A stretch of DNA of 63,781 nucleotides, the filler included, from Stramenopiles sp. TOSAG23-6 (Eukaryota): NCBI GenBank assembly GCA_900128565.1. It is 9 parts of 9 records of this genome, joined end to end, with 100 filler letters (N's around TTAATTAATTAA, not from the genome) between each part and the next. Parts side by side here need not be neighbours in the genome. Positions count along the whole stretch, not along the records: positions 1 to 7,058 come from LT636617.1; positions 7,159 to 14,204 come from LT636618.1; positions 14,305 to 21,307 come from LT636619.1; positions 21,408 to 28,403 come from LT636620.1; positions 28,504 to 35,494 come from LT636621.1; positions 35,595 to 42,576 come from LT636622.1; positions 42,677 to 49,657 come from LT636623.1; positions 49,758 to 56,722 come from LT636624.1; 1 more part is not named here. One strand, given 5' to 3'. The notes under the pieces were generated by a model that saw only the letters and a program-made list of their open reading frames with translations, searched no databases and had not been told where the DNA came from. The translations under genes were made by a program, and so were the position numbers. Below, one piece after another: positions 6,048 to 63,781 of this stretch. The stretch's first letter is position 1; every line of letters starts with the position of its first letter.

Positions 6048-6977
6048 ATGGCTCGAAGGTCTACCGAAAGTCTAAGGGATGAAATCATGGGACGTGTGTC
6101 GGAACGGGATACACTTGATAATCAAATACAACCAGAATCTGGTGAAAAATACTTGATGGCGATGCTTCGATCTGTCCAAAAGTCTCAAAGAAAACCAAAA
6201 ATGATTCATAAAGAAATAGACCTGAAAGGACCTAAACTTCATATGACCCAGAGAATGTGGATAAAGGCACATCACGCCATGCATGATGAACTCATTATGA
6301 ATGCGAAATCTTATGTGTCTCATGAAGTGCGAGAACATGAAAAAGTCGTAAAACGAAGTCGCGCTTTGCATTCCAATGATTTGTATAAAGAAATTAAGGG
6401 AAGAGCTCAGAGAAAAATTTTAAATCAAGGAAACAAGGAACTTCTTCATCTTCTTCATCGTGTTGGCGAGAGAAAAGATCAATATCATGGCTCTAAAAAT
6501 AATAGTTGGGACCAATTACGTAAACGACGAGCGAAGGCATACGTTTTTATCATGAATTTTAATTTTTTTTTTTTATACGAAATTTTGTACCTAAGAAAAA
6601 AAAAAAAAAAAAAACTAATTTTTTTTTCAATTTTTTTTCATAGTACATTTTGTATCTAACGATTTTATTTTTTTTTTAATTTCACACTTTCACACTATAC
6701 GACTACATTAGCAAAAGTCTCCGCAAAAAGAATGTATGTTTTATATGAATTTCTAATTTTTTTTTTTTTTTTTTTAAATTTTTTTTATACGAAATTTCGT
6801 ACCTAACAAATTTTTTAGAATTTTTTTTTGAAATATTTTTTCACAATACATTCTTGATGGTAAAAAACGTCAAGCTAATCAAGAAGTACTTGAAAGACTA
6901 GTTAATACAACATCTGCATTTAATCGGCGCAAATGGGAATATGATTATCAGAAACATCAGGAACGTGTTGCTTTGAT
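6048..6977 (+). CDS. CFAP97/Hemingway-like ciliary protein, 3' partial; exons 6048-6538, 6701-6733, 6852-6977
   Basis: Spliced frame gives NKELLHLLHRV and ANQEVLERLVNTTSAFNRRKWEYDYQKH. Confidence 0.55.
6539..6700 (+). mobile_element. Introner intron AT..AC with double core
   Basis: ATACGTTTT donor variant, two branch-like cores; removal restores frame. Confidence 0.6.
6734..6851 (+). mobile_element. Introner intron GT..AT, preceded by AT
   Basis: Consensus match; removal restores frame (AGA ATT CTT). Confidence 0.85.
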
Positions 6978-7058
6978 GTATGAGTTCAAGATTCACTTTT
7001 TTTTTTTTTTTTTTTTTTATTTTTTTTTTTTTAGTACAAAATTTTGTACCAAAAAAAA

Positions 7059-7158
7059 NNNNNNNNNNNNNNNNNNNNNNNNNNNNNNNNNNNNNNNNNN
7101 NNTTAATTAATTAANNNNNNNNNNNNNNNNNNNNNNNNNNNNNNNNNNNNNNNNNNNN
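7059..7158. other. Artificial contig spacer (also 14205-14304, 21308-21407, 28404-28503, 35495-35594, 42577-42676, 49658-49757, 56723-56822)
   Basis: 100-nt N blocks with central TTAATTAATTAA; contigs decrease in size from 7058 to 6959 nt. Confidence 0.98.
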
Positions 7159-7160
7159 AT

Positions 7161-7253
7161 GTATGTTTTATTTTTTTTCAAATTCGAATTTTGTTTTCGT
7201 ACGAAATTTTGTACCTAACGATTTTTTTTTTGAAATATTTTTTCATAATCCAT
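7161..7253 (+). mobile_element. Introner intron GT..AT, preceded by AT
   Basis: Consensus match, ends AATCCAT. Confidence 0.75.
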
Positions 7254-8416
7254 ATCGACGAATATCGATTGATGCTGTAGAAAAAAAATGGACAAAAATA
7301 TATAAGACATCTTTAAAACAATGTATGCATGGTATATCATGTAAACATGGTGGTCCTCCTCATTGTACTATAGGTCATCGACTTCAAAAGATTCCTATTA
7401 TTACTGGAAGTGTGACTTCTATTTGGGGAACACTTGAGCGAGCAGTCGCTGGTTTACCAAAGAAGGACTCTTCATTACGCGTAGTTCGTGTTCAAATAAA
7501 TGAAAAACAAAATACTAGAAAAAAAATTATTGGTGTTCGATTTCCTTTTCATAGATTAAAAACTCTTAGTCAAATTCTTAGTATGAATAGAAGTCGTAGA
7601 CATGGTCGAAAAGAAATTGTTGCACTTCAAACAAATTTTGGTCTAAATAATGTTTGTTTTATTTTTTTTCAAATTCGAATTTTTTTTCGTACGAAATGTT
7701 ATACCTAACGATTTTTTTTCAAATATTTTTCGAAAATACATGTAGTAGAATCTTTCAAATTGGCAAGGAAAACTGATTATGTAGTATTTGAGAAGGAAAA
7801 CAAAACCTTTGAAATACCAGCTAATTCTATTATCATTGATGTTCATGGTGTTAGTACACAATTTTCAACACCCCAACAAATATTGAATTTAATTAAAGAA
7901 CGTGGTAAAACTCGTGAAAGTATTCGATTATGCATCATTAAACCAAATTCTATTGAATTGGGAAATAAATTAGAAGAAATTACTGCAATAGACAAAAATG
8001 CAAAGAAACGGGCTTTTAATACTGTACAAAAAAAAATGACTTCATTTTTTAAGACTGGTGTTTCTAGTTCATCTATATTTACAAAAGATTTTGCAACGAA
8101 ACCTTCGAAAAAAAAAATATCAAAGAGAAAAGCCGCTCAAATGGTCAAAGCATCGTCTCAAGGGAAAACGTCGATATTTACCAAACGATCGAGACCAAAG
8201 ATTCAGTCTGCAACGTCGATCTTTGCTAAACAAACAAGAACAAAAAGGAAATCACCTGCAGCAAAGACAGTTTCAAGTGGTAAAAATGAAGTGATTGAAA
8301 TCAGTGATAGTGACGATAGTGAATATATGCCTGAATTTTGTGGAATTGATGCGAGATTTACGGAAGAAGTTTCAACAAGAAAAACTAGAAAAAAACGTAA
8401 AACTTCAACAAAGTAG
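7254..8416 (+). CDS. SBNO: Strawberry notch (SBNO/FORGETTER-like) C-terminal part, 5' partial; intron 7652-7741
   Basis: WTKIYKTSLKQCMHG..CKH..CTIGHR..ITGSVTSIWGTLE..LRVVRV..IIGVRF matches the SBNO C-terminus. Confidence 0.75.
7652..7741 (+). mobile_element. Introner intron GT..AT, preceded by AT
   Basis: Joins ORFs 7163 and 7760 in frame. Confidence 0.85.
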
Positions 8417-10518: not shown

Positions 10519-12837
10519 ATGTACTTTAATATGCTGAAGCAAATTGCAGTATACTTTAATGTTTTACATGTTATGATCAGAGTAAATTCATTGAAGAGTA
10601 ATGTATCAGGAGATATTCCAGATACTTTATTACTCGAACAAGAAGCTGCGTTGCAGTTTCATAGATGGTGGGACAGTCCGTCCAAAAAATCACAAACAGA
10701 ATCACTAGGACTTAGTCTGCCCTCACTAGAAATGAATCCCATTTTTGCACCTCATTTATTGAATGAAAATCTTGAGTTATCTCCACATAAGAAGGATAAG
10801 AAGAGTGAAATTGGAAAGTCATCCTTTTTAGAATTTAGGGAAAACTTGCTCAAATTTAAACACGAATATAACGGGGATCCTCCCGTGCCAAGAAATCGAG
10901 AAAGTTATCTAAATTTACCTCATTTCACTTTACCACCCCCTTATTTTTTATCTTTTCTTGAAACAAATACAAATTTGGTCAAACAAGGTAACAAACCTTC
11001 TTGGTGGAACGACGTACGTTTTCAGTATGAATTTCAAATTTATTTTTTTTTTCGTACGAAATCTTGTACCTAACAAATTTCGAATTTATTTTTTTTTACA
11101 ATACATGTTCGCCCTCCAATCACTAAAGCAAGCAAACAACAGCGACAAAAGCAACAAAAAATTAAGAATGAGACAATAAATACAAAAACTAATTCTCATT
11201 CACGCGATTTCTTACAGTCAGAATATGTACCGGATGTATTTAAAGAATCTCTTCAACCAACGAGATTTCGTTTTAACGGAAACGAAATGGTTCTTGAAAA
11301 TGTAAATCTATCAAAAATATCCGATCAATACCGATTTCGTGGAGGTAACAGGGTACAATTATCTGATAATGATCCTAAGCCTTACACTCCACTGTGGGCA
11401 AAACGAGGATTGATTAACAGAGAACGACCTCCAAGTATAAATGATGGAACACTTAAACAAAAAACTTGGAAAACATTAGTAGATAATTCCCAAAGAACAA
11501 ATAGGATTGAAAAAAGTAGTAGTCAACACTTTTTACAAGCTCTTCTTCCCGATTCTGTTAGACTTGAAGGTGATCCTTTTGCAGTTGAAGGTGGTGCGCA
11601 GGGATTTCTTGAAACGCAGTCCACTACTGAAGCTCAATCCAAGGTAAGTAATCAACTACATACCAAGGTTAAATCATCGACAAACCTGTTTCTGAGGAGT
11701 AAACAAGCAAGTCAAAATAAACTCAAGGAACGTAATAAAAATATGGGATTTGGTCATGTATTTCACTTTCCAAATCATCGGCGCATGGTCGATGGTACGA
11801 ATCAAGGTAAAATGTTCCAACAACAAATAGGAAATGAAAATAAAAAAGTATCACAACAAATCATGAATGAACATTTGGGTCGAGGACAGATTTTCAATTC
11901 AAATAGCAATCAACGAGCTTTAAGTCGGTATGCATATGATGGAAATATTATTAAAAATCCATCTAAAATGTATGAAAATGCTCAATTTGGTGGCAACCCT
12001 ATTATAAATGGAATGTATGGATTAGATAAAATGCCAGACACTCGATTTGGAACAGATAAATCCAAGGTTACTATAGGCGCTGCTGAAATTATGCCAGAAC
12101 TTGGAATTGTTGGAAACTTAAATTCTGGAGGTGGTCCATTTGCGGGATCAATGTCTCCACCTTCCGCACCCAAATATAACTATTCGGCATTCAGACATGG
12201 CTCTCAGGAGCAACGTCCAGCACCACCGCCACCTGCATCTCCGATACCCGTTGGTCCTCTTGGTGGAGGTCAATTTCCATCAATTTCGAGTAGTTTGAAT
12301 AGTAGTACATCTCATTCTTCAAACGAGACAGGTCTGGTAAATAGCTATCTTCCAGTAACGAGTACTTCAAATATACATTCAGCGAAATCAAGTAAAAACT
12401 CTACTGGTGAAATGAGTATGCTACTTGAGGTCGGCGAAGGAGCTCAAGCTAGTATGAGCACAAAACAAGCTCTGACTAATGCACTTGCAGTGCGTCAAGA
12501 AGCTGAAGAAAAACAATCATTGCAGATTCTACAAGAGAATGCACTTGCTGCGTCATCAAATACAGGCACAAAACATAAAATACAATCAAGGAATAACATA
12601 TCAATGTCTTTTCAATCAAACAGAGAACTACCATCACTTTTCGATAAAAATTTAGTAAAACCAGAGGAAATCGTAGTACACGATTGGGGTGGCTTTAAAT
12701 TGAACAACCATGAACTTCCTTCAGTGCCATCTTTAGAATTAGGAAGGAAGATGCCGAATCATCCTATTCCTCATATGCATAGTTTACCTCCTCCAATGAG
12801 AGGTGCAGGCCCACCATTGCCTCAAGTACCGGTATAA
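10519..12837 (+). CDS. Hypothetical, possibly secreted low-complexity protein; intron 11014-11106
   Basis: Splicing joins ORF 10519 to ORF 11287 in frame; hydrophobic N-terminus; recurring SFLE-like motifs. Confidence 0.7.
11014..11106 (+). mobile_element. Introner intron GT..AT, preceded by AC
   Basis: Phase-0 join GAC|GTT; open frame to 11287. Confidence 0.85.
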
Positions 12838-12959: not shown

Positions 12960-14150
12960 TTAAGATGCAACAACATCATCCCACTTTTGTGCTTCATCGC
13001 TTTCACACCATACTTTGAAATCTTTCATGTTTATATCTAAATGTCCTATGTATTTTTGAAAAATATTTAAAAAAAAAAAATGTTAGGTACAAAATTTCGT
13101 ACTTAAAAAAAAGAAAAAAAAATGGAAAAAACTAAAACATACATGTTATGAGGATTTCGAATTACGCGTATTGGAGGATTTAATTGTTCTTGCATAAATT
13201 TTTGTGTAAATGTCGCCAACACTGGCATAGGTGAATGAAACATTTTTGCATGTATCATATAATTTTCATCAATTCGATTATGATAAATGTCCCATTCGAT
13301 ACCATTCAAATCATTGGCTCTTTTTGAACCATACCATGAGGCTGGATGTCTAGCCTGACCAGAATGTTTACCTTTACCAACACGAAAATTCACTTGAAAA
13401 TCTATATTATATCCAGTGTTTAAAATTAATTTTCTAAATTTCAATAAACAATCCGAAATTTTCACTATTGCGACACCTCTGGATAATCCACGTAACTGTA
13501 CAATCACAGATGTTGAGATTTTATTTGAATTATTATTATTATATCCATAATTGCAATATTTACGATATATCAATAAAGGTCGAGGATCCTTCAAAACAGT
13601 CCAATTATATTCTACTGTTGGAAGGACTATCGCATCAATTACACAAGAATAATGTTGTCTTGTTAAAATACCCGAATTATTTAGTTTTTCAATAAATACT
13701 ATAGCAGCATTGATACCTTCTGAGCCTTCTCTTGCCATATTCCATATTACTTTCGTCCTATGAGCTGATAGTTCAGTTGTTTTATTTTCTCCAAATTCAT
13801 TTTTGTTTTTCGCAGTTTCTAATTCCATTTTCGATAAATCAAAGTACCTTGTATATCTTGGAGAGATAACACAATTTATGTTATCATGTATTCGGCTTGC
13901 CGCTTTGATATTTCCTTCTAAAATGTATTTGAATGCAACCATCCAAAAAGAATGATGATCTATTTCTGCACCTCGTGCTTCCATCGCAAGTAAGTATTGT
14001 GAAAAAATATGTCAAAATTGAAATTCATTAGGTACAAAATTTTCTATGAAAAAGAAAAAATTGAAATTAAATTGGATAACTTACAAAAAATCCTCACTTT
14101 CTTGACCAGACCAACACGCTTTCAACATTACACCAATATGTTGACAGTTC
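12960..14150 (-). CDS. PPR-like plus SMR domain protein, 5' partial; introns 13048-13142 and 13992-14084
   Basis: VQLRGLSRGVA, RVGKGKHS and spliced NPHNIGHLDI SMR motifs; MLKAC and HYSCVIDA PPR-like helices. Confidence 0.7.
13048..13142 (-). mobile_element. Introner intron GT..AT, preceded by AT
   Basis: Removal restores SMR C-terminal N-I-G-H-L. Confidence 0.85.
13992..14084 (-). mobile_element. Introner intron GTAAGT..TT, preceded by TT
   Basis: Join TTT TT|A CTT GCG ATG is in frame. Confidence 0.8.
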
Positions 14151-14392
14151 ATATATTGTAAAAAAAATTAAATTCGAAATTTGTTAGGTACAAAATTTCG
14201 TACGNNNNNNNNNNNNNNNNNNNNNNNNNNNNNNNNNNNNNNNNNNNNTTAATTAATTAANNNNNNNNNNNNNNNNNNNNNNNNNNNNNNNNNNNNNNNN
14301 NNNNAATATTTCAAAAAAAAAAACTAAAATTTGTTAGGTACAAAATTTCGTACGAAAAATAAATTGGAATTTGAAAAAAAATTTAAACATAC

Positions 14393-16283
14393 ATGCCTCT
14401 TTCGAAGAGATAATTTGGAATCAAGATTATCCCTCTCCTGGCTCCAGTTAGGAAGGTCAACTAAATTTTCTTTCTGAAGATCTGTTTTTTTACTTTCAAT
14501 CATTTCGATATCTGACATTTTTTTGTTTTTTTCTTCTTCTGTACGAATCGTGATATGAATTTCAGGTTTTCCTGAGATTGATTTGTACGCTGCTACGGCA
14601 GTTTTTTCAGCCCAACTTTTATCATTATTAGTATTGTCAAATTCTTTATTTTTGTGGTTGTGAGGTTTGTTCATTGATGAACTACTTGGACACGAAATAC
14701 GACTACCATGATTATACAATGTAAATCCATGCTCTCGAACATCAACGCCAGATAATTGAACACAATCTGACACTCGCACACCGTATATTGTGAAAAATAT
14801 TTTTTTGTAAAAATATCGTTAGGTACAAAATTTCGTACTAAAAAATTAAATTTGAAATTAATTGTGAAAACGTACGTATACTTTATCCAATCCAAAGAAT
14901 ACAATAAACGCACAAGTTAGGGTCCAAATAGTAATACAAACAATGCCTAATAACTGTATTAAAAATTGATTACCATTTGCCAAAGAGTTCCCTTCCGGTA
15001 AACTAAGTCCAGCAGCTACTTTTTCATCAGTTGCAAAAATTCCAACAGCAAGACATCCCCAAATACCACAAAATCCATGAACTGAAGAAGCATCTAGAGG
15101 ATCATCAATTTCAAATTTTTCCAAAATCCAAGAAAAAAGTAAAAGAATTAAAGAACCAATAACACCAATACATATAGATGCAGCAGGAGATACAATGCCA
15201 CAAGATGCTGTGATAGAGACTGCTCCTGCAAGTATTGCATTAAGTGACATCTGAATATCATATACATTCCAGAAAAATTTAGTGAAAATAAGTGCTGTGA
15301 AGCAAGCACTAGCAGGAGCAAGAGTCGTATTCACAATCGCCAAAGCTGTTGTGTAAGTTCCGTTGCTCGTAACCCCTGGTCCAGAACTAGCATTAAAACT
15401 AAACCATCCAAACCAAGTATTGTGAAAAATATTTTTTTTTTTCCGTAAAAAAATCATTAGGTACAACATTTTCATGGTAAAAAAATAAATTCAAAATGAA
15501 TGATGAAAACGTACATAGAAGACCAGTACCAAGTGCGGTGAATATAATATTCTGAGGTGGTATTTTGCGACCCTTGGTAGCAAAAATAGGATATTTCTCT
15601 CCCCATCGTCCAGCTAGTTTTCGAGGATGCAACCAATTGTCTTCCGGTAAAAGAGGACCTAACAATCTGCTCATATTTCGTTGATTCGAATATTTCGTAC
15701 TAAAACGGCCCACACGAGGACCTACTAGTGTCGCGCCAACAAGACCACATAGACCTCCGACAGCGTGAACAACCCCACTACCGGCAAAGTCAATAAAACC
15801 ATAATGATCAAAACTTCGAGGCCACCTATCAGCATTTGTACCTGAAAATATTCCGTCACTACTCCATACTTGTCGAACTACTAAAGGGTAAACAAAGCCA
15901 GTTATTACTAAAGTATAGAAAAAGTATGCTGATATCTTTGTGCGTTCTGCGACAGCTCCACTGACAATAGTTGCTGACGTTGCTGCAAAAGTGAAAGAGA
16001 AAAACCAATTTGTTAATTCCGAACCTGACTTCAGATTACGCATCAAAAACGCTCCATTATCTGCATTTGCTATTGCAAAGCCTACCGCAAACCATGTAAG
16101 TGCTCCTAAACAAGTATCCGCGTAGTTTTTAAATATAATGTTGATGGCGGCCTTTTTCTGTACAGCTCCAACTTCAAGGACGAGGAAACCAACTTGCATC
16201 AAAAATACGTGCATTCCACATAGTAACAACCATACATTTTCGGAAGAAGCCACAACGTCAGTAAGGCCCTTAGAATTGGACAT
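14393..16283 (-). CDS. AMT: Ammonium transporter (Amt); introns 15415-15514 and 14783-14875; 3' partial
   Basis: FLMQVGF, TIVSGAVAER, DFAGSGVVH, spliced GLLWFGWFSFN, IDDPLDASSVHG. Confidence 0.95.
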
Positions 16284-16576
16284 CTTTCTGGTATATTATA
16301 ACTTCAAAAAATGAATGTGCTGCTTAAAATGTGTGTATCATCCAATCGGAGCATTCGTGTATATGTTTTTTTTAAAGCAATCGTTTGACAACTTGAACTG
16401 TTAAAAAATCCAATCAATCTCGAGAGAGTGTCATCGATACATACGACGAGGAGAGATTTATTTATCCGTTACAAATATTCTAGTACCGGGATCGGATGTG
16501 ATATGAAACGTTTGTAACAACTTGTGATCAAGTAGTCAAAAATGACGTAGTCACAAAAAGATACACAGACCAAAAA

Positions 16577-18776: not shown

Positions 18777-19328
18777 TGTTATCAGTACTAGAATCTATCG
18801 TATTCTCAGTGTTTTCTTCGTAATTTTCATATCCCTGAGAATAGTATTCTTGTGATTCTTCGTAATTTCCTTCTGCGTAATAATTTCCGTATTCACTCTG
18901 TTCGTCGTAGCCTTCGTTGTAGTCGTATTCATTTTGATAGTAGGACTGTTGTGTATAGTCATATTGCTCTTGTGATGTACTGTTATGATCATATTGATAG
19001 TTGTTATAATCGTATTCTTCTTGGTCATAAGACATTTTTTGGTCTGTGTATCTTTTTGTGACTACGTCATTTTTGACTACTTGATCACAAGTTGTTACAA
19101 ACGTTTCATATCACATCCGATCCCGGTACTAGAATATTTGTAACGGATAAATAAATCTCTCCTCGTCGTATGTATCGATGACACTCTCTCGAGATTGATT
19201 GGATTTTTTAACAGTTCAAGTTGTCAAACGATTGCTTTAAAAAAAACATATACACGAATGCTCCGATTGGATGATACACACATTTTAAGCAGCACATTCA
19301 TTTTTTGAAGTTATAATATACCAGAAAG

Positions 19329-30850: not shown

Positions 30851-30944
30851 TCAACAAAACATCCTTTTTCAATTTGTTTGTTTTTGACTTTTTTTGTTGT
30901 TCAAAAAAATAGCAAATAGCAAAAATTAATTTCGAGCAAATAAA

Positions 30945-30951
30945 TACCCGG
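30945..30951. promoter_or_regulatory. TACCCGG promoter motif
   Basis: Lies in divergent intergenic region. Confidence 0.5.
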
Positions 30952-31101
30952 TACCATATAAAAAAATTGACAATTCAATTATTTCGTGTGTATGTATTGT
31001 AACCGTAATCTAATCAGATGCGCCGTGTTGCATATTATTATAAATGCTGTAGTAGTGAAATATTCTGCTTTACGAGACGAGTGGCAAAAAAACACGTACG
31101 A

Positions 31102-53124: not shown

Positions 53125-55488
53125 ATGTCTGTGCATAGACGAATACCAAGGTTAAATAACAGTCAAATAGAGAAAACGAAAAAAAACATGACAAAATTAA
53201 AAAACACACCGAAAAATGAATTCTTCTCGTTCGACGACTCAAAAGGAATTCTACAACGTTTTTATCCATCAAACAATAGTATATGGAATATATTTATATT
53301 TGTGTGTTTTGTTCTCATCATATCTCTCTGTAACGAACGTATTAGTACAGCGTTTATAGTTAAAAACCAAGAGAATACTATAGAACAACCAGGGATTGTA
53401 TATACCAGAATTGATCAAACATATAACTGGGAATATGAAGAAACTGGAAATGGACAGAGATTTAGTGAGCAAAAAACAATGTTTGATCCAACGGAAACTA
53501 ATACGGGTGATGACTTAAACAACATTGCTAAAGGAAACGATCCAAATAGTGGAGTAGAAGATTTTTGTTTTGAACAATTAAAAAGTCCTTCAGGCAATTC
53601 GACTGTCATTTGGGTTGAAACAACTCGTTGCTCCACCGTACTCGCTGATTACTTGTTACTATCTACTGTTTTACTTTTTATTATATTAACTCTATATTGC
53701 TTTTGTAGATACGGACGAGTATCATGGAGTACTGAAGGTCATACTAAATCTATACAAGCTTTGTGTTGTAGTGAAGATGGTTATACACTCTACTCAGCAT
53801 CATTAGATGGAACAGTTAAAATTTGGAATGTTGAAGATGGGGTTTGCATTAAAACTCTTAGAGGACACAAAGGTAAACCTGTTTTGGCTTTATGTTTAGG
53901 CAAAAAAAGTACCAAAACATATCTATTTACAGGCGGTGCTGGCGGTATGGCTTTAATGTGGGATGTTAAAAATATTGCTGCATGGCGTGGTGCTCTCCAT
54001 GAAGCACCAAAGTCCCATTTGACGCAAGGTACAGTTCAATTAAATATTACTGCACATGCTCCATATCCAATAACATCTTTATTCGTAAGTATTGATGGTT
54101 GTTCGTTAATTACTGGTGGTGGTGATGGGTATTTAAGAGCGTGGAATTTAGTCTCAGGCGATTGTACGTTTGCAATTTCAAAATTTTAATTTTTTTTTTT
54201 CGTACGAAATTTTGTACCTAATGATTTTTTTACAAAAAAATATTTTTTCACAATACTTTAATTAAAACAATTAGAGGTCATGATTTTTTTGTGCGTCAAG
54301 TTTTATGTGATGACTCTATCAATACAGTTTATTCTTGTAGTGATGATTTAACAATAAGAGCATGGAATGCTACGAGTGGAGGTTGTTTGCATACCCTAGC
54401 ATGTATGTTTTATTTTTTTTTTTCCGGTAAAAAAAAAATCAAATTTTTTTTTCGTACGAAATTTTGTACCTAACGATTTTTTTACAAAAAAATATTTTTC
54501 AGAATACATCACATAAAGATGCAGTTACATGTATTTGTTTAACTAAAGATGATCAAATTATAATATCTGGATCTAGAGATGATTCAATTAAATTATGGAA
54601 TGCTAAAACAGGACTTCTCTTACGTACTTTAATGGGACATGATGAGGATGTATGTTTTATTTATTTTTTTTTTTTAACCGGAAAAAAAAAAATCAAAAAT
54701 TTTTTTTTTTGAAAAATTTTGTACCTAACAGTTTTTTTTTGATTTTTTACTAAAAAAATATTTCTCCAAAATACATGTACAATGTTTATGTTCATCAACA
54801 AATCCTAAAGATAGATTTTTTTCTGGATCTCGAGATAATACAATAAAAATCTGGTCCATTACAACTGGAAAGTGTCTTCAAACACTCCGCGGTCATTGCA
54901 TGTTTTATTTTTTTTTTTTTCATACGAAATTTCGTACCTAACAAATTTTTTATTTTTTTTTTAACAAAAAAATCAATTTTTTTTTTCGTACGAAATGTTG
55001 TACCTAACAAATTTAAGGTTTTTTTTTGAAATATTTTTCCAAAATACTTGTATTGATACAACATCAATGAATTATTTTACAGATAATTCATATACTTCAC
55101 ATAAAAACACTAAAAATACACAATTTAAAAAAGATGATGTTGGTGGTGTATTTGCTATTATTGCGAGTATAGATGGTAATACATTATATAGTGGAGGAAG
55201 TGACTCTAAAATTATTATTTGGGATATTTCAACGCCTCTGATGAAGACGGGGAAAATATTGCTACAATTTGATATTAATGATGTTAAAAAAAATTGGTCA
55301 TTCTGATTCAATACTCTGTTTTGCATTACATTCAATGAAAAACACGAAACCTAAATATTTATTTTCTGGTTCTGCTGATCAAACAATTATCATATGGGAT
55401 GTTAATGAGCCTAAAAATATTAAAATTTTGAATCGAAAATTAAAAGTGTTGAGAGGTCATACAGCAGTTACAAGTTTACAAGTTGATT
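53125..55488 (+). CDS. Membrane-anchored (2 TM) WD40-repeat protein; 4 introner introns and +1 frameshift near 55290
   Basis: GHTKSIQALC...SASLDGTVKIW; GH..WD repeats restored by splicing. Confidence 0.85.
54164..54258 (+). mobile_element. Introner intron GT..TT, preceded by TT
   Basis: Restores GDLIKTIRGH. Confidence 0.9.
54403..54509 (+). mobile_element. Introner intron GT..AT, preceded by AT
   Basis: Restores HTLASHKDAV. Confidence 0.9.
54650..54776 (+). mobile_element. Introner intron GT..AT, preceded by AT
   Basis: Restores GHDED|VQCL. Confidence 0.9.
54898..55049 (+). mobile_element. Introner intron GC..TT, preceded by TT, double core
   Basis: In-frame join LRGHCIDT. Confidence 0.82.
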
Positions 55489-55580
55489 GTATGTTTTATA
55501 TGAATTTCTAATTTAATTTTTTTTCATACGAAATTTCGTACCTAACGATTATTTTTTTGAAATATTTTTTCACAACTCAT
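55489..55580 (+). mobile_element. Introner copy GT..AT whose flanking exons are out of phase
   Basis: Consensus match; donor is phase 1, acceptor is phase 2. Confidence 0.7.
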
Positions 55581-56540
55581 TATCACCTGTGCACGATTCA
55601 AAAAGAGTACAAAAATTGTAAACGATAAAAATAAATCTGAACTTTTTGCTGTAGGCGATTCAATAGGCGCTGTGATGATTTGTAGTGCTGATACTAAGAA
55701 CCCTGGTCCAATTGCTACTTGTAATGGTCATTCTGGAGAAATTAATGATTTGGATTGGGATTCGACTGGTCAATATTTGTTAACAGCGTCGTCTGATTTT
55801 ACTGTACGAGTACGTTTTCATTATGAATTTATGAATTTATTATTTTTTTGGTACGAAATTTTGTACCTAAACAAATTTTTGATTTTTTTTTTTTTTGCCA
55901 TGTACGTTTTCATCATGAATTTCAAATTTATTTTTTTTCATACGAAATTTTAATTTTTGTGTTTGCACGCAATTCTGTAGCTAACAAATTTTGAATGTAG
56001 AACATAGTTTTTAATTCCACAGATTTGGGATCTCAGATCACAATCTGTCACAGAAAAAATGTTAGGTACAAAATTGGGTACGAAAACAGAGTACACGAAA
56101 TCTCAGGATTTGAATGAAAATAAAAAAAATACAGAAAATACATTGATTCGGTTGACTGCTTTAAAAATAATTTATACTCATGGAAAAATCAGCTGTTGTC
56201 GATTTTGTCCGGAAAATAATAATTGCTTTGTTGCGGGTATTTCATGTAAAGGCGGAAAGAATTCACTACGTGTATACAATATCTGTCCTGATGTATGTTT
56301 TCATCATGAATTTCGAATTTATTTTTTTTTCATAGGAAATTTTGTACCTAACAAAAAACCAAAAAAAAATGTAAATATTTTCACAAAATCCATGTTACAC
56401 TTAAATCTGAAATGATAACTTCACATCTCTCTCCAGGTCCTGAATATATTGAAATGCGTATAAAGGATAGTATGACCTCTCTGGAATTTTCTTCGGCATC
56501 TCAATTATTATTCTCTGACCAGAGAGGGCTCATTTGGTCT
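55581..56540 (+). CDS. WDR13-like WD40 protein, partial; introns 55810-56022, 56293-56393 and from 56541
   Basis: ITCARF, GHSGEINDLDW...ASSDFTVRIWD, CCRFCPENNN. Confidence 0.65.
55810..56022 (+). mobile_element. Compound introner intron GT..AG with a second copy starting at 55902
   Basis: Two GTACGTTTT starts; restores TVR|IWD. Confidence 0.8.
56045..56141 (-). mobile_element. Antisense introner copy inside WD40 exon, flanked by AT/AT
   Basis: Minus strand reads GTATTTT...TTTTCGTACCCAATTTTGTACCTAAC...GACAG. Confidence 0.7.
56293..56393 (+). mobile_element. Introner intron GT..AT, preceded by AT
   Basis: In-frame join to ORF 56412. Confidence 0.85.
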
Positions 56541-56823
56541 GTATGTTTCATTTTTTTTAATTTCCTCTTTATTTGTATTTTCTTCTGTAGTATTATTTGT
56601 TGAATTCATTTTATCTAGTTCAGTTGAATTTGAAATAATTTGAAAATCTCTAGCAAACGATATTGACAAATGATCTACAGCACTTGATGAATTTGGAATT
56701 TCTGTATGATGCATCCAAAGACNNNNNNNNNNNNNNNNNNNNNNNNNNNNNNNNNNNNNNNNNNNNTTAATTAATTAANNNNNNNNNNNNNNNNNNNNNN
56801 NNNNNNNNNNNNNNNNNNNNNNT

Positions 56824-59800
56824 GGGCGAATCACAGTAAGTGCAGGACATTCAACTACATCTACTGGTGCTACAGGAGGTGCAATCTCCATAATCACTGG
56901 TTATGGTGTTTTATCTTCAAGTGGATCATTTAGCATAAAGACAGGTAATGCTGGTACAGTAGAAGGTGTATCAGGTTCCATCCATATTAGTTCAGGAAGT
57001 GCTAAAAGTTCTAGTGGTCATATTGTAATGCGTTCTGGAAGCGCGGTAAGCGGAGCCGGGGGTAGTATCAGTGTTGTTGTCGGAACTGGAACAGCATCAC
57101 AAGGTGGCCGTGTTATCATTAAAGCAGGTGAATCATCCTCCGCAACAGATGGCACTGGTGGTTCATTATCGATCATTTCAGGTTACAGTACTTCATCATC
57201 AAGCGGTGCATTTAGTATTCGCACAGCAAATGCAGGATCTCTTGGTGTCAGTGGATCTCTTCAATTGATGTCGGGAACTAGTTCAAAAGGTCGTAGTGGT
57301 GAAATAATATTGAGAAGTGGGAATGCAACATCCGGGGCTGGTGGTAGTGTAAGTTTAGCCGTTGGTGTAGGTACAAGCTCTTCAGGTGGGCGGGTCACAG
57401 TTAGTGCAGGAAAAGTTCAAAATTCTACTAATGTTGGTGGTTCAATATCTTTGATATCTGGTTATGGTGGAAGTGTGGCAGATAGTGGTTCGTTTAGTAT
57501 AAAATCTGCATCTGGTGATAATAGTGGTATCTTGAATATAAGTACAGGATCCTCTAGTGATACAAGTAGTGGAGATGTCATTATTCGGTCAGGTGATGCT
57601 ACAAATGGCAGTGTATCTGGTAGTGTTTCTATATATGCTGGAAGTTCAGTGTCCAGTCCGGGCACTGTGAATATATCTGGCGGCAATTCACCTGATTCTG
57701 GGGTTGGTGGAGACATATCAATGATATCTGGTTATGGGTCTACGTCATCAAGTGGATCATTTACAATACAAACTAATGATGCGGGAAGTACTGGTATTTC
57801 TGGAAGCTTAAATATTTTTACTGGTGCAGCAAATAAAGGGAGTAGTGGTTTTATCAGTATGCGGTCTGGAAATGCAACATCAGGAGCCGGTGGGAGTGTG
57901 AGTGTATCCGTTGGATCTGGAAGTGTAAATACTGGTGGTCGTATTACTTTGTCTGCTGGCGAAACTGAAGATTCAACTTCTATGACAGGAGGCGCAGTTT
58001 CTATGGTCAGTGGTTATGGAACGGCTGCATATAGCGGCACATTCAGCATTCGCACAGCAAATGCAGGATCTAGCGGCTCTAGTGGGACGATAAGAATTGT
58101 TACAGGCAGTTCATCTGCTGGAAATACTGGTGCATTGGTGTTACGAAGTGGTCGATCCTTAGGTGCTAGTGGGGGGAGTATTAGTCTCATTGTAGGAACA
58201 GGGGACACAACTTCTGGTGGTAATATTGTTATGACAGCCGGTAGATCGGATGCAGTTATTGGGGGTGACGTATCAATTGTTAGTGGGTATGGTCGAGCAA
58301 AATCAAGCGGTCACTTTTCCTTTGCAACCGCAAATGCAGGAACATCTGGTGTATCAGGGTCTATGAACATTAGTACAGGCACTGCCAGTGGAGGAAGCAG
58401 TGGGCATATTCTTCTGCATTCTGGTATATCTACAGGTGGTGCTGGTGGTAGTTTGAGTTTAGTTGTCGGTAGCGGCAGTTCTGCTCATGGGGGGCGTATT
58501 ACATTTACTGCAGGCGAATCGTCAACATCAACTGGAGGGGCGATTTCAGTGAGTTCAGGATATGGCTCCGATTCATCGAGTGGCGCTTTTAGTATTCGCA
58601 CTTCTAATGGAGGCATATCGGGAGCTTCAGGCAATATCTCATTAATCACTGGTACAACAAGTTCTGGTTCAAGTGGTGCAATTCAGCTTCTTTCTGGAAA
58701 TGCAACGGGAGGCTCAGGGGGTAGCATTCGTATTGCAGTAGGCAGTGGTAGTACTTCTCAAGGAGGTAGAATTACAATGCGTGCAGGTGGAACAGATGCT
58801 TCATCAGAAGCTACTGGTGGATCTATTTCCTTGGTTAGCGGATTTAGTAGTTTAACATCCAGTGGATCATTCAGTATAATGTCGGCGGATGGGGGCTCAA
58901 ATGGAGTGAGTGGCGATTTAAATTTTTCTACAGGTGTATCAAATAATGGAAGCAGTGGGTCTATAAAATTGACCACTGGTTTAGCTTCGAGTGGTACTAG
59001 TGCTGGTATGTCCACAACTTCATCTGGGGGGGCAATTTCTTTGGTTTCTGGGTATAGTCAAGCCACTTCAAGTGGCGCATTTAGTATCCGCACAGCAAAT
59101 GGTGGGTCAAGTGGTGTTTCTGGGTCGCTATCTTTTAGTACCGGAACAACATCCAAAGGAAGCAGTGGGTCGATAAATATAAAAAGTGGAAATGCCACGA
59201 AAGGCATGGGTGGTAGTATTAACATAACTGTTGGAACTGGTTCAATAAATCAAGGTGGACGGGTTATCATATCTGCCGGAGCAATAACCCCAGCCTCTAG
59301 TAGTTCAAGTGATACTAGCATTGCAAAAACTGGGGGCTCTCTTTCTATGACAAGTGGTTATTCGAGTGCATCCTCAAGTGGGTCGTTTAGCATCAAAACT
59401 GCAAATGCAGGCACCAATGGTGTCACTGGTTCTATTGAAATGAGTACAGGTACAACATCTCTTGGCTCTAGCGGGCATTTAATTTTACGTAGTGGGACTG
59501 CTTCAAATGGCACTGGTGGTAGTGTCAGTTTTGTTGTGGGGAGTGGAAATGCCAACACCGGAGGTCGCATTACAATATCTGCGGGGAATACGAAGACCGC
59601 AAATGGCAAAACTGGAGGCGCAGTATCAATTATTTCAGGATATGGAAGTTCATCTTCTAGTGGCGCATTTAGTATTAAAACAGCAAATGCAGGTACAACC
59701 GGGGTTAGTGGGTCATTAAGGCTTGCTACAGGTACAACAAGTTCTGGCTCAAGCGGGCATATTTTGATGCGGACTGGGAATGCTAATAAGGGCGCTGGTG

Positions 59801-62800
59801 GAAGCATTAGTATTGTAGTAGGTTCGGGAAATAAAGCAGGAGGCGGACGCATAACTTTGGTAGCAGGTAGCACATCTGACACAAACTCCAATGGTGGCTC
59901 AGTGTCCATCAATTCTGGATACGGAAACACTTCAAATAGTGGGGCTTTTAGTATTCGTACTGGAATAGGCGCATCAAGTGGCGAGGTCCATATTAGCACT
60001 GGAAATGCAACGAATGGTACAAGTGGTACAATGATACTTCGAACGGGTTCTGCAACCGGAGGTGCAGGTGGATCTATAAGTATGATGGTAGGTGCCGGTG
60101 AAGTTGATGTAGGAGGCTCTATCACAATATCGGCTGGCGAGAGCACTTCAGTGACTGGAGGTGCATTATCATTATCTTCTGGTTTTGGTAGATCAACATC
60201 AAGTGGGTCATTTACAGTGAAAACACCAGATGCAGGAATATCAACAGGGGGTGTAAGTGGTGCACTTTCATTTTATAGTGGTTCAGCTAGTAACGGAAGT
60301 AGTGGTTCTATGGCATTTACTACCGGAAGGGCAACACTTGGTGTTGGTGGCAGTATAAGCATCGCTGTTGGTGCAGGCACAGTGAATAATGGAGGCAGAA
60401 TTGTTATTTCAGCAGGTGAAAGTACAACTCAGACTGGTGGTTCTATCAGTCTCTCCTCAGGTTTCGGAACCAATAGTTCCAGTGGTGCATTTTCCATTAA
60501 AACTGCAAATGCTGGATTCGCAGGAACAAGCGGCAAAATGTATATAAAATCTGGTGATGCTTCAGCTGGAGGAAGTGGTGCTATAGCAATAAGATCGGGG
60601 AATGCGGGTACTGGTGCTGGTGGTAGTATGAGCATAGTAGTCGGTAATAGCGGATCAGCACAAGGTGGCCGTATAACTATTTCTGCCGGAGATGTTACAG
60701 GTTATTGTAGTATCGCGTCATATTTGAACAAATCCGATTGTATTGCAGGAGGAGGTAGTTGGACATCCGGTGATGCTACTGGGGGTTCAATTTCCATAGC
60801 TTCAGGTTTTAGTGTAGCCACTTCAAGTGGCGCCTTTAGCATAAAAACTGCAAATGCAGGAACTACAGGAATTAGTGGAAGTCTATATCTTGCAACAGGT
60901 ACTACAAGTAAAGGCAGCAGCGGATCTATGTTGTTTCGGACAGGTGTCGCGACATCAGGGGCTGGAGGAAGTATTAGTATTATGGTCGGCAGTGGTCAAA
61001 CAGGGTCAGGTGGCCAGATTACTATTAGCGGAGGATCGTCTTCAACCGGAAAAGGTGGCGATTTATCGCTGACATCTGGGTACGGCTCAACTTCAGGGAG
61101 TGGTTCATTTAGTATTAAAACTGCTTCGAGTTCGAGTGATGGCACCAGTGGTGGACTTCACTTATCAACTGGGAGTTCACAAAACGGCAAAAGCGGTATA
61201 GCGATTCTTCGTTCTGGTGCTGCATCTAACGGTGCTGGTGGAAATATTAGCATATCAGTCGGGAGTGGTAACGCAAACGAAGGTGGCCGTATAACAATCA
61301 GTGCGGGTGAGTCAACAGCATCTGACGGAAATGGAGGATCAATTTCAATCGCAAGTGGATTTGGACGAAATACAAATAGTGGATCATTCAGTATAAAAAC
61401 TTTGGCTGGTGGTAGTTCAGGCACAAGTGGATCTCTTCATATATCTACAGGAAATGCTAACTGTACCTCAGGTTCATACACTGATATCTCAAGTGGCGCG
61501 GTTGTAGTTCGTACAGGAAATTCAACCAATGGCAGGGGTGGAAATATTAGTCTTTTAGTTGGTGCCGCGTCAGCTGGAAGCGGTGGCAACATTGTGGTAT
61601 CTGCCGGTGCTATGACGTCCTCGTCAGCTTCAACTGGTGGAGCAGTTTCATTGACTTCAGGATATTCCTCTTATAATGATAGTGGACCATTTAGTATTCG
61701 CACCGCCGACTCTGGAAATTCGGGAGGATCTGGATCGCTTACCATTAAAACAGGAACTTCAAGTGGTGGAGCTAGTGGTGCAATTACACTACGCACGGGT
61801 TCTGCCACACTAGGTGCAGGTGGCAGCATTAGTGTCATTGTAGGCAGTGGTAATACAGCAACAGGTGGTCGAATTACAATATCTGCTGGTACCAGCGAAG
61901 AATCAACTGGTGGTTCAATATCACTATCACCTGGATATGGTAGGGCTACATCTAGTGGTTCATTCAGCATAATTACCCCAAATGCTTTTTCAGGAGTTAG
62001 CGGTTCTCTTTCATTCAAGACAGGCACCGCAAACGTTGGAAGTTCCGGTGCAATTATCTTACAAACGGGTAATGCCATTCAAGAAGATGGAACCTCAAGT
62101 GGAATGGGCGGTGGTATCAGTATCATTGTTGGAAATTCGAGTGGAAGCGGTGCGAATGGTGGAGATGTTACAATCAAAGCTGGCGACACAGATACTGGAA
62201 GTGGTGGTGGTGTACGAATTGTAACAGGAAGCGGTAATGGAGGAACCCCTGGTGATTTTGTTACAAGTCTTGGTGCTGCTGGTAGCGACAACGAACTGAA
62301 GCTAAACCCTACCAGTTCTTACTTTAAAACTGTAGGCGAATTACTTTTTGCAGCTGGTGATTATTCCAATGGTGCGTATGACGCAAGTTTGGATTTAAAA
62401 AGTTCTGGAGATATTGAATTGAAAGGCAAAGGAACAGTAGATTTCACAACTACAAATACATCTGCGGAATCATTTGTTTTAGGGACTACTGGTGTTGGAG
62501 GGACGGTGAAGGTGACTGGAAAAACATTTTTTCGCCACGGCATTGGCTTTGGCCGATACTCTGGTAGTGGGAACTTTTCTGATTCACCAATTTTGTACTA
62601 TATGAATCAGGGAGTGATAGACTTTTACGGTAGCCACTGTGAGGGAAACTATACGACAGGTTCATTTACCACCGACATAGGTGTTTCAGACTACTGTCAA
62701 ATAACATTATCGGATGGTGGCGCGTATATGCAGGCCAGACACCAACTTACTGAGCCAGATGGAGGATGGGAAGGTAGTAATACTTACTTTAAAATATTTG

Positions 62801-63132
62801 TTACACCGCCTACGAGATTGGGCACAGATAAATATGAAGAAGGGGTTACAGATTGGGCATGTGCACCATATGGTACCGACGATAGTAGTGCGACTCTTCT
62901 TGCATCTGTATCTTCTTCAACCGCAACACAATGCTCTTTGGCATGGATGTCTTGGGTACAATCTACAGACAGTTTGGATAAGGTATATGCATATATCCGT
63001 TTGATTAATGTTAAAGACGATTCATTAACTTTAAAAATTGGAGAAAATGAATGGGAATGGCAGTATCTTGCATTTGGGCATAGATGTATCGGTTCAACAT
63101 CAAGTTTAGCTTGTTATAGCAATTACGAATGA
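56824..63132 (+). CDS. Giant Gly/Ser/Thr-rich repeat protein (predicted beta-solenoid, adhesin-like), 5' partial
   Basis: >2100 codons open from contig start; recurring GGSISIxxGxG / GGRITISAG / SSSGAFSIKTANAG units. Confidence 0.85.
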   Translation, partial: GRITVSAGHSTTSTGATGGAISIITGYGVLSSSGSFSIKTGNAGTVEGVSGSIHISSGSAKSSSGHIVMRSGSAVSGAGGSISVVVGTGTASQGGRVIIKAGESSSATDGTGGSLSIISGYSTSSSSGAFSIRTANAGSLGVSGSLQLMSGTSSKGRSGEIILRSGNATSGAGGSVSLAVGVGTSSSGGRVTVSAGKVQNSTNVGGSISLISGYGGSVADSGSFSIKSASGDNSGILNISTGSSSDTSSGDVIIRSGDATNGSVSGSVSIYAGSSVSSPGTVNISGGNSPDSGVGGDISMISGYGSTSSSGSFTIQTNDAGSTGISGSLNIFTGAANKGSSGFISMRSGNATSGAGGSVSVSVGSGSVNTGGRITLSAGETEDSTSMTGGAVSMVSGYGTAAYSGTFSIRTANAGSSGSSGTIRIVTGSSSAGNTGALVLRSGRSLGASGGSISLIVGTGDTTSGGNIVMTAGRSDAVIGGDVSIVSGYGRAKSSGHFSFATANAGTSGVSGSMNISTGTASGGSSGHILLHSGISTGGAGGSLSLVVGSGSSAHGGRITFTAGESSTSTGGAISVSSGYGSDSSSGAFSIRTSNGGISGASGNISLITGTTSSGSSGAIQLLSGNATGGSGGSIRIAVGSGSTSQGGRITMRAGGTDASSEATGGSISLVSGFSSLTSSGSFSIMSADGGSNGVSGDLNFSTGVSNNGSSGSIKLTTGLASSGTSAGMSTTSSGGAISLVSGYSQATSSGAFSIRTANGGSSGVSGSLSFSTGTTSKGSSGSINIKSGNATKGMGGSINITVGTGSINQGGRVIISAGAITPASSSSSDTSIAKTGGSLSMTSGYSSASSSGSFSIKTANAGTNGVTGSIEMSTGTTSLGSSGHLILRSGTASNGTGGSVSFVVGSGNANTGGRITISAGNTKTANGKTGGAVSIISGYGSSSSSGAFSIKTANAGTTGVSGSLRLATGTTSSGSSGHILMRTGNANKGAGGSISIVVGSGNKAGGGRITLVAGSTSDTNSNGGSVSINSGYGNTSNSGAFSIRTGIGASSGEVHISTGNATNGTSGTMILRTGSATGGAGGSISMMVGAGEVDVGGSITISAGESTSVTGGALSLSSGFGRSTSSGSFTVKTPDAGISTGGVSGALSFYSGSASNGSSGSMAFTTGRATLGVGGSISIAVGAGTVNNGGRIVISAGESTTQTGGSISLSSGFGTNSSSGAFSIKTANAGFAGTSGKMYIKSGDASAGGSGAIAIRSGNAGTGAGGSMSIVVGNSGSAQGGRITISAGDVTGYCSIASYLNKSDCIAGGGSWTSGDATGGSISIASGFSVATSSGAFSIKTANAGTTGISGSLYLATGTTSKGSSGSMLFRTGVATSGAGGSISIMVGSGQTGSGGQITISGGSSSTGKGGDLSLTSGYGSTSGSGSFSIKTASSSSDGTSGGLHLSTGSSQNGKSGIAILRSGAASNGAGGNISISVGSGNANEGGRITISAGESTASDGNGGSISIASGFGRNTNSGSFSIKTLAGGSSGTSGSLHISTGNANCTSGSYTDISSGAVVVRTGNSTNGRGGNISLLVGAASAGSGGNIVVSAGAMTSSSASTGGAVSLTSGYSSYNDSGPFSIRTADSGNSGGSGSLTIKTGTSSGGASGAITLRTGSATLGAGGSISVIVGSGNTATGGRITISAGTSEESTGGSISLSPGYGRATSSGSFSIITPNAFSGVSGSLSFKTGTANVGSSGAIILQTGNAIQEDGTSSGMGGGISIIVGNSSGSGANGGDVTIKAGDTDTGSGGGVRIVTGSGNGGTPGDFVTSLGAAGSDNELKLNPTSSYFKTVGELLFAAGDYSNGAYDASLDLKSSGDIELKGKGTVDFTTTNTSAESFVLGTTGVGGTVKVTGKTFFRHGIGFGRYSGSGNFSDSPILYYMNQGVIDFYGSHCEGNYTTGSFTTDIGVSDYCQITLSDGGAYMQARHQLTEPDGGWEGSNTYFKIFVTPPTRLGTDKYEEGVTDWACAPYGTDDSSATLLASVSSSTATQCSLAWMSWVQSTDSLDKVYAYIRLINVKDDSLTLKIGENEWEWQYLAFGHRCIGSTSSLACYSNYE

Positions 63133-63380
63133 ATTTGCTTATTGTGTAATCAGGATAAACTTTATAACATAATATAATAAAATCAATATTAAAAATATAT
63201 TTAATAATTGTTTTCCATTACGTATAAATTGGAATAATTATTTTTTTTCTAAATTTTATTTTTTTGTGTTTCAAATGATTATAACTTAGTACCAACATTT
63301 TCAAATTCAATTTTTTTCATTGAATGATATAAATTAGTTTTCAGGATACTAATCTAAAGTAAATATAGTACAAATCTAGA

Positions 63381-63728
63381 TCAAACTTGCAATTCATCAG
63401 AAGTCTGAATAGACAACACCCTAACATTTTCTTTGGTGTTAATGATAGGATGTAAATGATCACGAAGGAAGTCTTCTGTTTGTTCTACACAACTACCAAT
63501 AAAAAGACTAGGATCGAGAAGATCATCCAATCGATGATGTACAGCAGAAAAAAGAGGATCTTGTGATATTCGATTCAACAGATCATTTTGAGCGCCTTCT
63601 GACTTGACACGTTCACTAGCGGCAAGGGAGTGAGTGCGGATGGCTTCATGCAGTTGTTGGCGACATCCTCCCGCTTTAACACATGCCATTAGAATTTCTT
63701 CTGTCGCCATAAAAGGAAGTTCCGCCAT
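63381..63728 (-). CDS. ADSL: Adenylosuccinate lyase, last exon; preceded by a partial introner to the window end
   Basis: ELPFMATEEILMACVKAGGCRQQLHEAIR...NDLLNRI...LLDPSLFIG. Confidence 0.92.
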   Translation of the reverse strand: MAELPFMATEEILMACVKAGGCRQQLHEAIRTHSLAASERVKSEGAQNDLLNRISQDPLFSAVHHRLDDLLDPSLFIGSCVEQTEDFLRDHLHPIINTKENVRVLSIQTSDELQV

Positions 63729-63781
63729 ATATTTTGAAAAAATATTTCAAAAAAAAATCGTTAGGTACAAAATTTCGTACG

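Follow-up and report, generated by a model that had tools for sequence, protein, structure and literature searches.

A high-copy intron family in a stramenopile single-cell assembly that appears to be removed at mostly non-AG 3' ends

We analyzed 63,781 bases of DNA assigned to Stramenopiles sp. TOSAG23-6 (assembly GCA_900128565.1), hereafter the window, which consists of nine contigs of 6,959-7,058 bases each, ordered by falling length. The window holds a family of short repeated introns that interrupt unrelated genes. These introns have textbook 5' and branch signals, end in whatever 2 bp were duplicated at their borders, mostly AU, and are apparently removed precisely from the transcripts. 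No rule holds more constantly for introns of the major (U2-type) spliceosome than that they end in AG. To our knowledge, all introner families described to date obey this rule by recruiting the AG from the target-site duplication.

The 24-nt core of the element, TTCGTACGAAATTTTGTACCTAAC, has 31 matches in the window at no more than 3 mismatches and none in 100 shuffles. A profile built from the copies gave 52 matches in nhmmer at E<=0.01; after subtraction of four mirrored duplicates and of three hits in which the palindromic core is echoed on the reverse strand, about 45 of them are distinct. These numbers bear out the repeat family reported in a preliminary description of this DNA, and alignment of the copies confirmed the consensus given there, which runs from GTAYGTTTT to a terminal ATACNN. 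The proposal of a high-copy introner was supported likewise. We curated 28 unique complete copies, 90-152 nt in length and all in the sense orientation of the open reading frame (ORF) they interrupt, lying in unrelated genes such as those for BBS9, an ammonium transporter (Amt), CFAP47, a WD40 protein, an IQ protein and others. Identity to the nearest copy is 71-94%, with a median of 84%. The mirrored copies that had been counted in the earlier tally all sit in inverted duplications of contig ends, and they are not independent.

On a 3.6-kb stretch we placed 2537 contigs of run X1, 7293 of run X4 and 1102 of run X6 (counts per single run; X1 and X4 are DNA runs and X6 is a polyA metatranscriptome run). 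The depth was heaped on the bins that contain the element, which points to a very high copy number genome-wide. Moreover, a public metagenome contig (L004) bears a family copy at 2459-2591 (-), with AT/AT flanks and inside an open frame, so the family also occurs outside the source assembly. This was the only true copy among the four loci found by a metagenome scan with a degenerate core; the other three (L001-L003) were chance matches, as was the single match of a viral scan (L005), which lies in coding DNA. The core itself includes two perfect palindromes, AAATTCGAATTT and TTCGTACGAA, seen for example at 7196-7219. No conserved RNA pairing was found for them, and they could be DNA-level recognition sites for a mobilising factor.

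The family copies of the window are given below. "Flank" is the dinucleotide before the GT and "end" is the last two bases of the copy, while paired numbers are open codons upstream/downstream after removal of GT..ATAC and the following 2 nt.

6539-6648 (+), family copy starting ATACGT (G1 to A), frame not restored alone
6734-6851 (+), family intron, flank AT, end AT, 24/69
7161-7253 (+), family intron, flank AT, end AT, upstream exon cut by contig end, 0/151
7652-7741 (+), family intron, flank AT, end AT, donor GTTTGT, 164/224
11014-11106 (+), family intron, flank AC, end AT, difference synonymous, 166/576
13048-13142 (-), family intron, flank AT, end AT, 289/29
13992-14084 (-), family intron, flank TT, end TT, donor GTAAGT, 27/296
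18117-18207 (+), family intron, flank AT, end AT, GC donor, 538/189
20098-20197 (+), family intron in the ammonium transporter gene, flank AT, end TT, mirrored at 15415-15514 (-)
20737-20829 (+), family intron, flank AC, end AC, 205/152, mirrored at 14783-14875 (-)
24572-24680 (-), family intron in the CFAP47-like gene, flank TT, end AG, gapless against 6 homologs
24826-24936 (-), family intron in the CFAP47-like gene, flank AT, end AT, gapless against 6 homologs
25952-26073 (-), family intron in the CFAP47-like gene, flank AT, end AT, gapless against 6 homologs
27224-27338 (-), family intron in the CFAP47-like gene, flank AA, end AT, gapless against 6 homologs
28285-28391 (-), family intron in the CFAP47-like gene, flank AT, end AT, at contig end
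31848-31944 (+), family intron, flank AT, end AG, 68/35
32025-32117 (+), family intron, flank GT, end GT, 32/56
32245-32345 (+), family intron, flank AC, end AC, 49/193
32807-32907 (+), family intron, flank AT, end AT, 191/73
33061-33169 (+), family intron, flank AT, end AT, 62/282
35682-35773 (+), degenerate family intron, flank GT, end AT, 28/140
37002-37099 (-), family intron in the IQ-motif protein gene, flank AA, end AT, 440/191
47876-47973 (+), family intron in the BBS9/PTHB1 gene, flank GA, end AT, gapless homology
54164-54258 (+), family intron in the WD40 gene, flank TT, end TT
54403-54509 (+), family intron in the WD40 gene, flank AT, end AT, removal seen in RNA
54650-54776 (+), family intron in the WD40 gene, flank AT, end AT
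54898-55049 (+), double element acting as one intron in the WD40 gene, GC donor, flank TT, end TT, removal seen in RNA
55489-55580 (+), family copy with decayed 3' end (ACTC), flank TT, end AT, 81/13
55810-56022 (+), composite intron, family 5' halves and an unrelated 3' part, canonical CAG end
56013-56135 (-), diverged antisense copy within the open frame of the + strand WD40 gene
56293-56393 (+), family intron, flank AT, end AT, 95/69

The 5' splice site is strongly conserved, with G at position 1 in 28/28 copies, T at position 2 in 26/28 (C in the other two) and G at position 5 in 27/28. GTAYGT is present in 23/28, and the remaining five copies have GCATGT (two), GTTTGT, GTAAGT and GTACAT. 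In the alignment, a branch signal of CTAAC or CTAAT was recognized in 27/28 copies, 33-48 nt from the 3' end. The best-kept columns of the element are the 5' nonamer, TACCTAAC and the 3' A-AATAC, whose last three positions are T in 27/28, A in 22/28 and C in 25/28. If the introns are read as GT..NN, where NN is the terminal dinucleotide, the final three bases are CAU in 19/28 copies, and the columns -3, -2 and -1 are C in 25/28, A in 23/28 and T in 24/28, respectively.

When GT..ATAC and the next 2 nt are removed, at least 27 codons are open on both sides in 24 of the 28 copies. One more copy has 24 open codons upstream and 69 downstream, and two copies at contig ends (7161-7253 and 28285-28391) have upstream frames that cannot be judged. 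The preliminary description had counted 29 unique complete copies that restore the frame; this holds for the 24 kept frames among the 28 curated copies and fails at 55489-55580. It had also tallied the ends as AT 17, TT 4, AC 3, GT 1 and AG 4. The predominance of non-AG ends is correct, while the exact counts are AT 19, TT 4, AC 2, GT 1 and AG 2, so that the canonical GT/GC..AG pattern of the described introner families is followed at the 3' side in 2/28 copies. The introns are spread evenly over the three phases (10/10/8), which is what an element without need of an exon motif should show.

The variable end has a simple source. The dinucleotide before GT is identical to the last two bases in 19/28 copies, compared with 11.2 matches expected by permutation; 10 of 100,000 permutations reached 19 (p=1e-4). 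Among the copies whose ends are neither AT nor AG, 6/7 have the matching flank (TT 3/4, AC 2/2, GT 1/1), and only the TT end at 20098-20197, preceded by AT, lacks it. AG does not occur among the 19 matching duplications. This match of flank and end is a 2-bp target-site duplication, and therefore the 3' dinucleotide varies, being the target itself. It follows as well that in these 19 copies the readings GT..NN, a one-base shift and NN..AC give the identical mRNA. Labels such as GT-AT and GT-TT, used in the preliminary description, are thus right in that the ends are non-AG, and in 19/28 copies they denote one of three equivalent registers.

Direct evidence for removal came from two polyA-selected seawater metatranscriptome runs of one study (X6 and X7) that hold parts of the WD40 gene. 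A contig of X7 (record 26, 174 nt, depth 3.4, 0 mismatches) runs from 54334-54399 directly into 54507-54614, and a contig of X6 (record 19, 151 nt, depth 2, one mismatch) runs from 54831-54895 into 55048-55133. The skips as placed by the aligner are 54400-54506 and 54896-55047, with repeats of 3 nt and 2 nt at the junctions. Once these flanking repeats are allowed for, the skips coincide with the introns predicted at 54403-54509 (GT..AT) and 54898-55049 (GC..TT). DNA contigs keep both introns: records 2 and 3 of X1 and record 11 of X4 cross the borders of 54403-54509, and records 4 and 6 of X1 cross those of 54898-55049 unspliced. In the first intron a CAG lies 7 nt upstream of the end, and the RNA contig shows that it is not the site used. 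The check by RNA that had been proposed for removal without AG thereby came out in its favour at these two introns. A search for protein ORFs of spliced RNA gave as near-identical hits only P0001 and P0121, which are read-through ORFs of unspliced DNA contigs.

Comparison with homologous proteins shows exact predicted junctions at seven further introns, one in BBS9, one in Amt and five in the CFAP47-like gene. With 47876-47973 removed from BBS9, RAHQFRVIQKR is restored and the conserved block RAHQFRVIQKRLL aligns with 39 homologs, 38 of which span the junction, none of them gapped at that point. With 20098-20197 removed from Amt, GLLWFGWFSFN is restored and matches the homologs P0122 and P0123, and the Amt Pfam profile matches 1-191 and then 202-376 across the junction. 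Removal of five family introns from the CFAP47-like gene leaves two long frames of 619 and 1,535 residues, parted by a single frameshift in a low-complexity stretch; 5/5 junctions are gapless against 6 homologs, one of which is 60% identical. In the WD40 gene, removal of four introns together with the skipping of one base gives a single frame with regular repeats.

The ordinary rule is seen as well. A canonical GT..AG intron is present at 55810-56022, and its removal restores SDFTVR joined to IWDLRS; therefore AG is still read in this organism. Of the relaxed 3' splice-site recognition proposed in the preliminary description, removal at non-AG ends is supported (two junctions by RNA and seven by homology); the canonical AG is read too, and the supposed relaxation may in truth be a preference for YAU. 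Two non-family introns, at about 43483 (-) and 2925 (-), are unconfirmed candidates, and the one at 43483 lies past the stop codon of its gene.

We consider it probable that the family is a transposon-derived introner that carries its own 5' and branch sites, uses the duplicated dinucleotide as 3' splice site and depends on a permissive second step of U2-type splicing. A non-autonomous, transposon-like element of about 90-125 nt would have multiplied through the genome, each copy bringing a yeast-like 5' site (GTAYGTTTT) at its first base, the branch site TACCTAAC, U-rich tracts and the conserved 3' A-AATAC. Insertion would duplicate 2 bp of the target, AT most often. The major spliceosome would then cut immediately before GT and ligate after the downstream copy of the duplicated dinucleotide, so that the element and one copy of the duplication are removed and the original reading frame is exactly restored. 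The 3' splice site would be whatever the duplication supplies, namely CAU in the 19 copies above, also CUU, CAC and CGU, and rarely CAG. The second catalytic step would have to accept YAU and related ends, as it does in yeast without Prp18. The spliceosomal mechanism, the GT..NN register, DNA transposition and permissive second-step fidelity are all parts that we infer. The features of the family fit a U2-type intron, and fit neither a U12-type intron nor introns defined by structure. No small nuclear RNA was found in the window with Rfam at the gathering threshold.

A stronger form of this proposal, which we advance tentatively, is that YAU and not YAG is the working 3' splice site of most introns in the lineage and is under selection, the preference of the second step having shifted. 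The shifted contacts might be those of Prp18, Slu7 and Prp8, or the pairing of G1 with the last base. Among the nine copies with unequal flanks the intron end is AT in 6/9 and AG in 2/9. At 27224-27338 the homologs mark the exonic AA as the older state. A change of the intron end from AA to AT is therefore suggested, a hint that AU ends are selected for and not merely tolerated. If such a shift is true, a transposon that duplicates 2 bp could settle at almost any exonic AT with no target AG needed.

Several points weigh against this interpretation. First, the RNA support consists of two short, low-depth contigs from one study, both junctions fall at copies with matching flanks, which leaves the register unsettled by RNA, and many contigs of the RNA libraries carry family copies (such as the 1102 contigs of X6 placed on the 3.6-kb stretch); the latter may be pre-mRNA, retained introns or DNA carry-over. 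Second, two copies depart from the rule. At 55489-55580 it fails the frame, with 13 codons open downstream, and a search for an acceptor that would suit the family rule as well as the WD40 frame further downstream found none. The copy at 6539-6648 begins with AT and works only within a larger unit, 6539-6851, whose removal as one piece restores the frame. Third, the flanks are unmatched in 9/28 copies, and the choice of register by homologs draws on single residues. Fourth, the transposition step is suggested by the 2-bp repeat and by no other feature: terminal inverted repeats comprise GTA(T)/(A)TAC only, of at most 4 nt, and no transposase or autonomous element was seen in the window.

The alternative that survives best is that the true register lies 2 nt upstream (NN..TAC), the introns being handled by a U2-type spliceosome through compatibility of A(+1) with C(-1). 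The major spliceosome is known to handle AT-AC introns. The shifted register gives the same mRNA in 19/28 copies, so the RNA contigs cannot discriminate; it would place the cut after TAC, directly behind the conserved 3' motif, and it has A as first base in 20/28 copies and AT..AC ends in 15/28, as in U12-type and U2-type AT-AC introns. However, its 5' cut would fall 2 nt upstream of the GTAYGT that matches U1 and U6, at a variable AT, TT, AC, AA, GT or GA. A U12-type intron has /[AG]TATCCTT at the 5' end and the branch site TCCTTAAC near the 3' end. Here no /ATATCC motif is present (ATCC at positions 3-6 in 0/28 copies, A[TC]GT there in 25/28), and the branch signal lies as far from the 3' end as given above and is of the CTAAC (U2) type.

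The nine copies with unequal flanks allow the two registers to be compared, since their mRNAs differ by register; two of the differences are synonymous. At 27224-27338 the residue is K under GT..AT and N under the shifted register; the 6 homologs have K, H, K, K, R and K, all basic. At 47876-47973, GT..AT gives S and the shifted register C, a residue present in 0/38 of the homologs covering the site. At 24572-24680, which ends in AG, GT..AG gives L and the shifted register R, against hydrophobic residues (L/I/M) in 6/6 homologs. The canonical intron at 55810-56022, which has the same family 5' end, points in the same direction: the cut before GT gives R and the shifted cut Q, and 5/7 sister WD repeats have R or K. 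Because the residues of homologs agree and the 5' end varies like a real 5' splice site, the GT..NN register appears favoured over NN..AC with good confidence, and the shifted register is unlikely. If the argument from homologs holds, the boundary of 27224-27338 would be unambiguous.

It is very improbable that the introns are removed without a spliceosome, by an endonuclease and a ligase guided by paired ends in the manner of euglenid, hemistasiid or Amoebophrya introns. Those systems share non-canonical ends and short direct repeats with the present family (PMC7789003, PMC12621601), and in the AT/AT copies AUGUAU can pair with AUACAU. Against this, RNAalifold gave 0 conserved pairs in 26 copies, which rules out a helix between the intron ends as a shared feature. 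The end helix is at most 3-4 bp and shows no compensating changes, for the GTAC subfamily retains ATAC and the copies with ATCC retain GTAT. The 5' site, the branch site and the U tracts are also better kept than the rest of the element.

Two more explanations find still less room. We give little credence to the idea that the joined RNA contigs derive from intron-less alleles or strains, or from elimination at the DNA level. RNA libraries can contain DNA, and the populations in the runs differ by about 2% from the window in some exons; nevertheless, all listed DNA contigs over these boundaries (X1 and X4) retain the intron, the RNA contigs, from polyA-selected libraries, differ from the window at 0 and 1 positions, and the genes would be broken in every DNA copy seen, yet long conserved frames are kept. 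The least probable explanation, that nearby AG acceptors are used and the open frames are coincidental, draws on AGs within 40 nt downstream of most copies and is already contradicted at the nine junctions tested by RNA or homology: RNA shows non-AG junctions at two introns, splicing to the AG 4 nt beyond 47876-47973 would break up the conserved RAHQFR block, the AG at the same distance beyond 35682-35773 is out of frame, no AG lies between the branch site and +40 at 27224-27338 or 56293-56393, and the same offset keeps the frame in 24/28 copies. The earlier claim that an AG acceptor is not required is upheld by these results, no in-frame AG explaining the junctions.

The family resembles several known systems and is identical to none. 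Miniature inverted-repeat transposable elements (MITEs) of the Tc1/mariner type have a 2-bp TA duplication and clear inverted terminal repeats; the present duplication is also 2 bp, and it is AT, TT, AC or GT and never TA, with the inverted repeats as short as stated. In known introners one splice site lies in the element and the other in the duplication, and the mRNA is restored (PMC11282704; 10.1101/2020.10.14.339549). Those of Micromonas, Aureococcus, Symbiodinium and Polarella have duplications of 3-8 nt or more, which must supply AG (or GY). They are like the present family in being short non-autonomous elements in many unrelated genes, with one site supplied by the duplication, and unlike it in their canonical ends; here the duplication is of 2 nt, mostly AT, and inverted repeats are almost absent.

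The MITE-derived introns of Fritillaria borealis, which an adapted U2 spliceosome is assumed to remove, have duplications at their borders (PMC11282704) and share with the present family this feature and the origin from transposons. They differ in their AG-AC/AG-AT ends and inverted repeats, whereas a strong canonical GTAYGT is found here. Amoebophrya introners and euglenid and hemistasiid introns are likewise repeated, with short direct repeats at the borders and non-canonical ends. They have inverted repeats of 8-20 nt or strong end pairing and no U1-type 5' site; the present family has no conserved structure and has canonical 5' and branch signals. In prp18-delta Saccharomyces cerevisiae, the non-G 3' sites in most frequent use are CAU and UAU, which poly(U) assists, and a contact of U(-1) with G(+1) has been proposed (PMC10711555). 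The likeness lies in U2-type ligation at non-G sites, the commonest end of the family being CAU after U-rich tracts. The difference is that the yeast case concerns a mutant and minor alternative sites, whereas in this wild organism most introns seen in 57 kb would use such an end as their regular, productive site.

We found no description of a GT..AT introner in the literature searched, supplements not included. Introner surveys begin from annotated genomes, and families with unfamiliar ends are checked by hand (PMC12130899); a case in an unannotated single-cell assembly would therefore go unseen. If our interpretation is true, a free-living lineage can possess a second catalytic step that is permissive by nature or has been retuned to YAU. 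We know of a permissive second step so far only in yeast mutants. A barrier to intron gain would also fall, for with no splice motif required in the target, introns could arise nearly anywhere and in any phase. Gene finders and spliced aligners bound to AG would mis-annotate most genes of such organisms. The family thus bears on the origin of new introns and on how strictly splicing signals are read.

The window carries eukaryotic genes, several of them ciliary. Represented are BBS9/PTHB1, a CFAP47 homolog, an ammonium transporter (Amt), the WD40 protein, the IQ-motif protein, U-box/Sel1 proteins and PRP21/SF3a. The last of these, an intron-less homolog of PRP21/SF3a subunit 1 at 3707-5875 (-) with Surp and PRP21_like_P domains, is the sole protein of the spliceosome encoded in the window, and it does not belong to the second-step factors. 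In a BBS9 tree (a single gene, quick search, 55 rows) the query falls in a clade with Aphanomyces, Ectocarpus, Bolidomonas and Triparma, with an SH-like approximate likelihood ratio test value of 98, and is set apart from Eutreptiella (a euglenid) and Willaertia (a heterolobosean). The closest named relatives are just 36-38% identical. The source organism would be an uncultured flagellated marine eukaryote, placed among the stramenopiles by this single-gene tree. A diplonemid origin, which would have linked the family to the non-canonical introns of marine diplonemid single cells, was rejected on the same single-gene tree.

The contigs of the window, which stem from a fragmented assembly, are joined by linkers of the form N44-TTAATTAATTAA-N44 at the following positions.

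7059-7158, 14205-14304, 21308-21407, 28404-28503, 35495-35594, 42577-42676, 49658-49757 and 56723-56822, linkers

Several contigs end within family copies (for example 7023-7058, 14148-14204, 49605-49657 and 63721-63781), and therefore the repeat breaks the assembly. Two contigs have inverted ends, that at 14305-21307 (14305-16856 versus 18757-21307, 2552 bp, 99.9%) and that at 28504-35494 (28504-30208 versus 33790-35494, 1705 bp, 100%). These duplications are assembly or amplification chimeras, typical of whole-genome amplification. Smaller irregularities were also seen. The window has one base more at 55286 than a DNA contig of the source-like run X1, likely an assembly error because the WD40 exon is one open frame once this base is skipped. 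The single frameshift in the CFAP47-like gene falls in low-complexity, lysine-rich sequence at 26324-26568 (-) and may reflect either a fault of the assembly or an intron that went unrecognised. At 33997-34013 an A9 run lies where two long frames overlap, and a homopolymer error is likely there.

In the WD40 gene, the antisense copy at 56013-56135 (-) would be translated as about 41 residues between WD repeats and may be an exonised family copy. Proteins with U-box and Sel1 repeats are encoded by a pair of paralogs at 181-1845 (-) and 50297-51331 (+), the latter within a tandem array with a repeat unit of about 108 nt. The G+C content is 30-37% across the contigs with the exception of the last, at 41%. 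This contig has a strong G skew and contains an open frame of 2102 residues at 56824-63129 (+), with Gly/Ser/Thr repeats and no clear Pfam family, and the partial family copy at 63721-63781 links it to the same genome.

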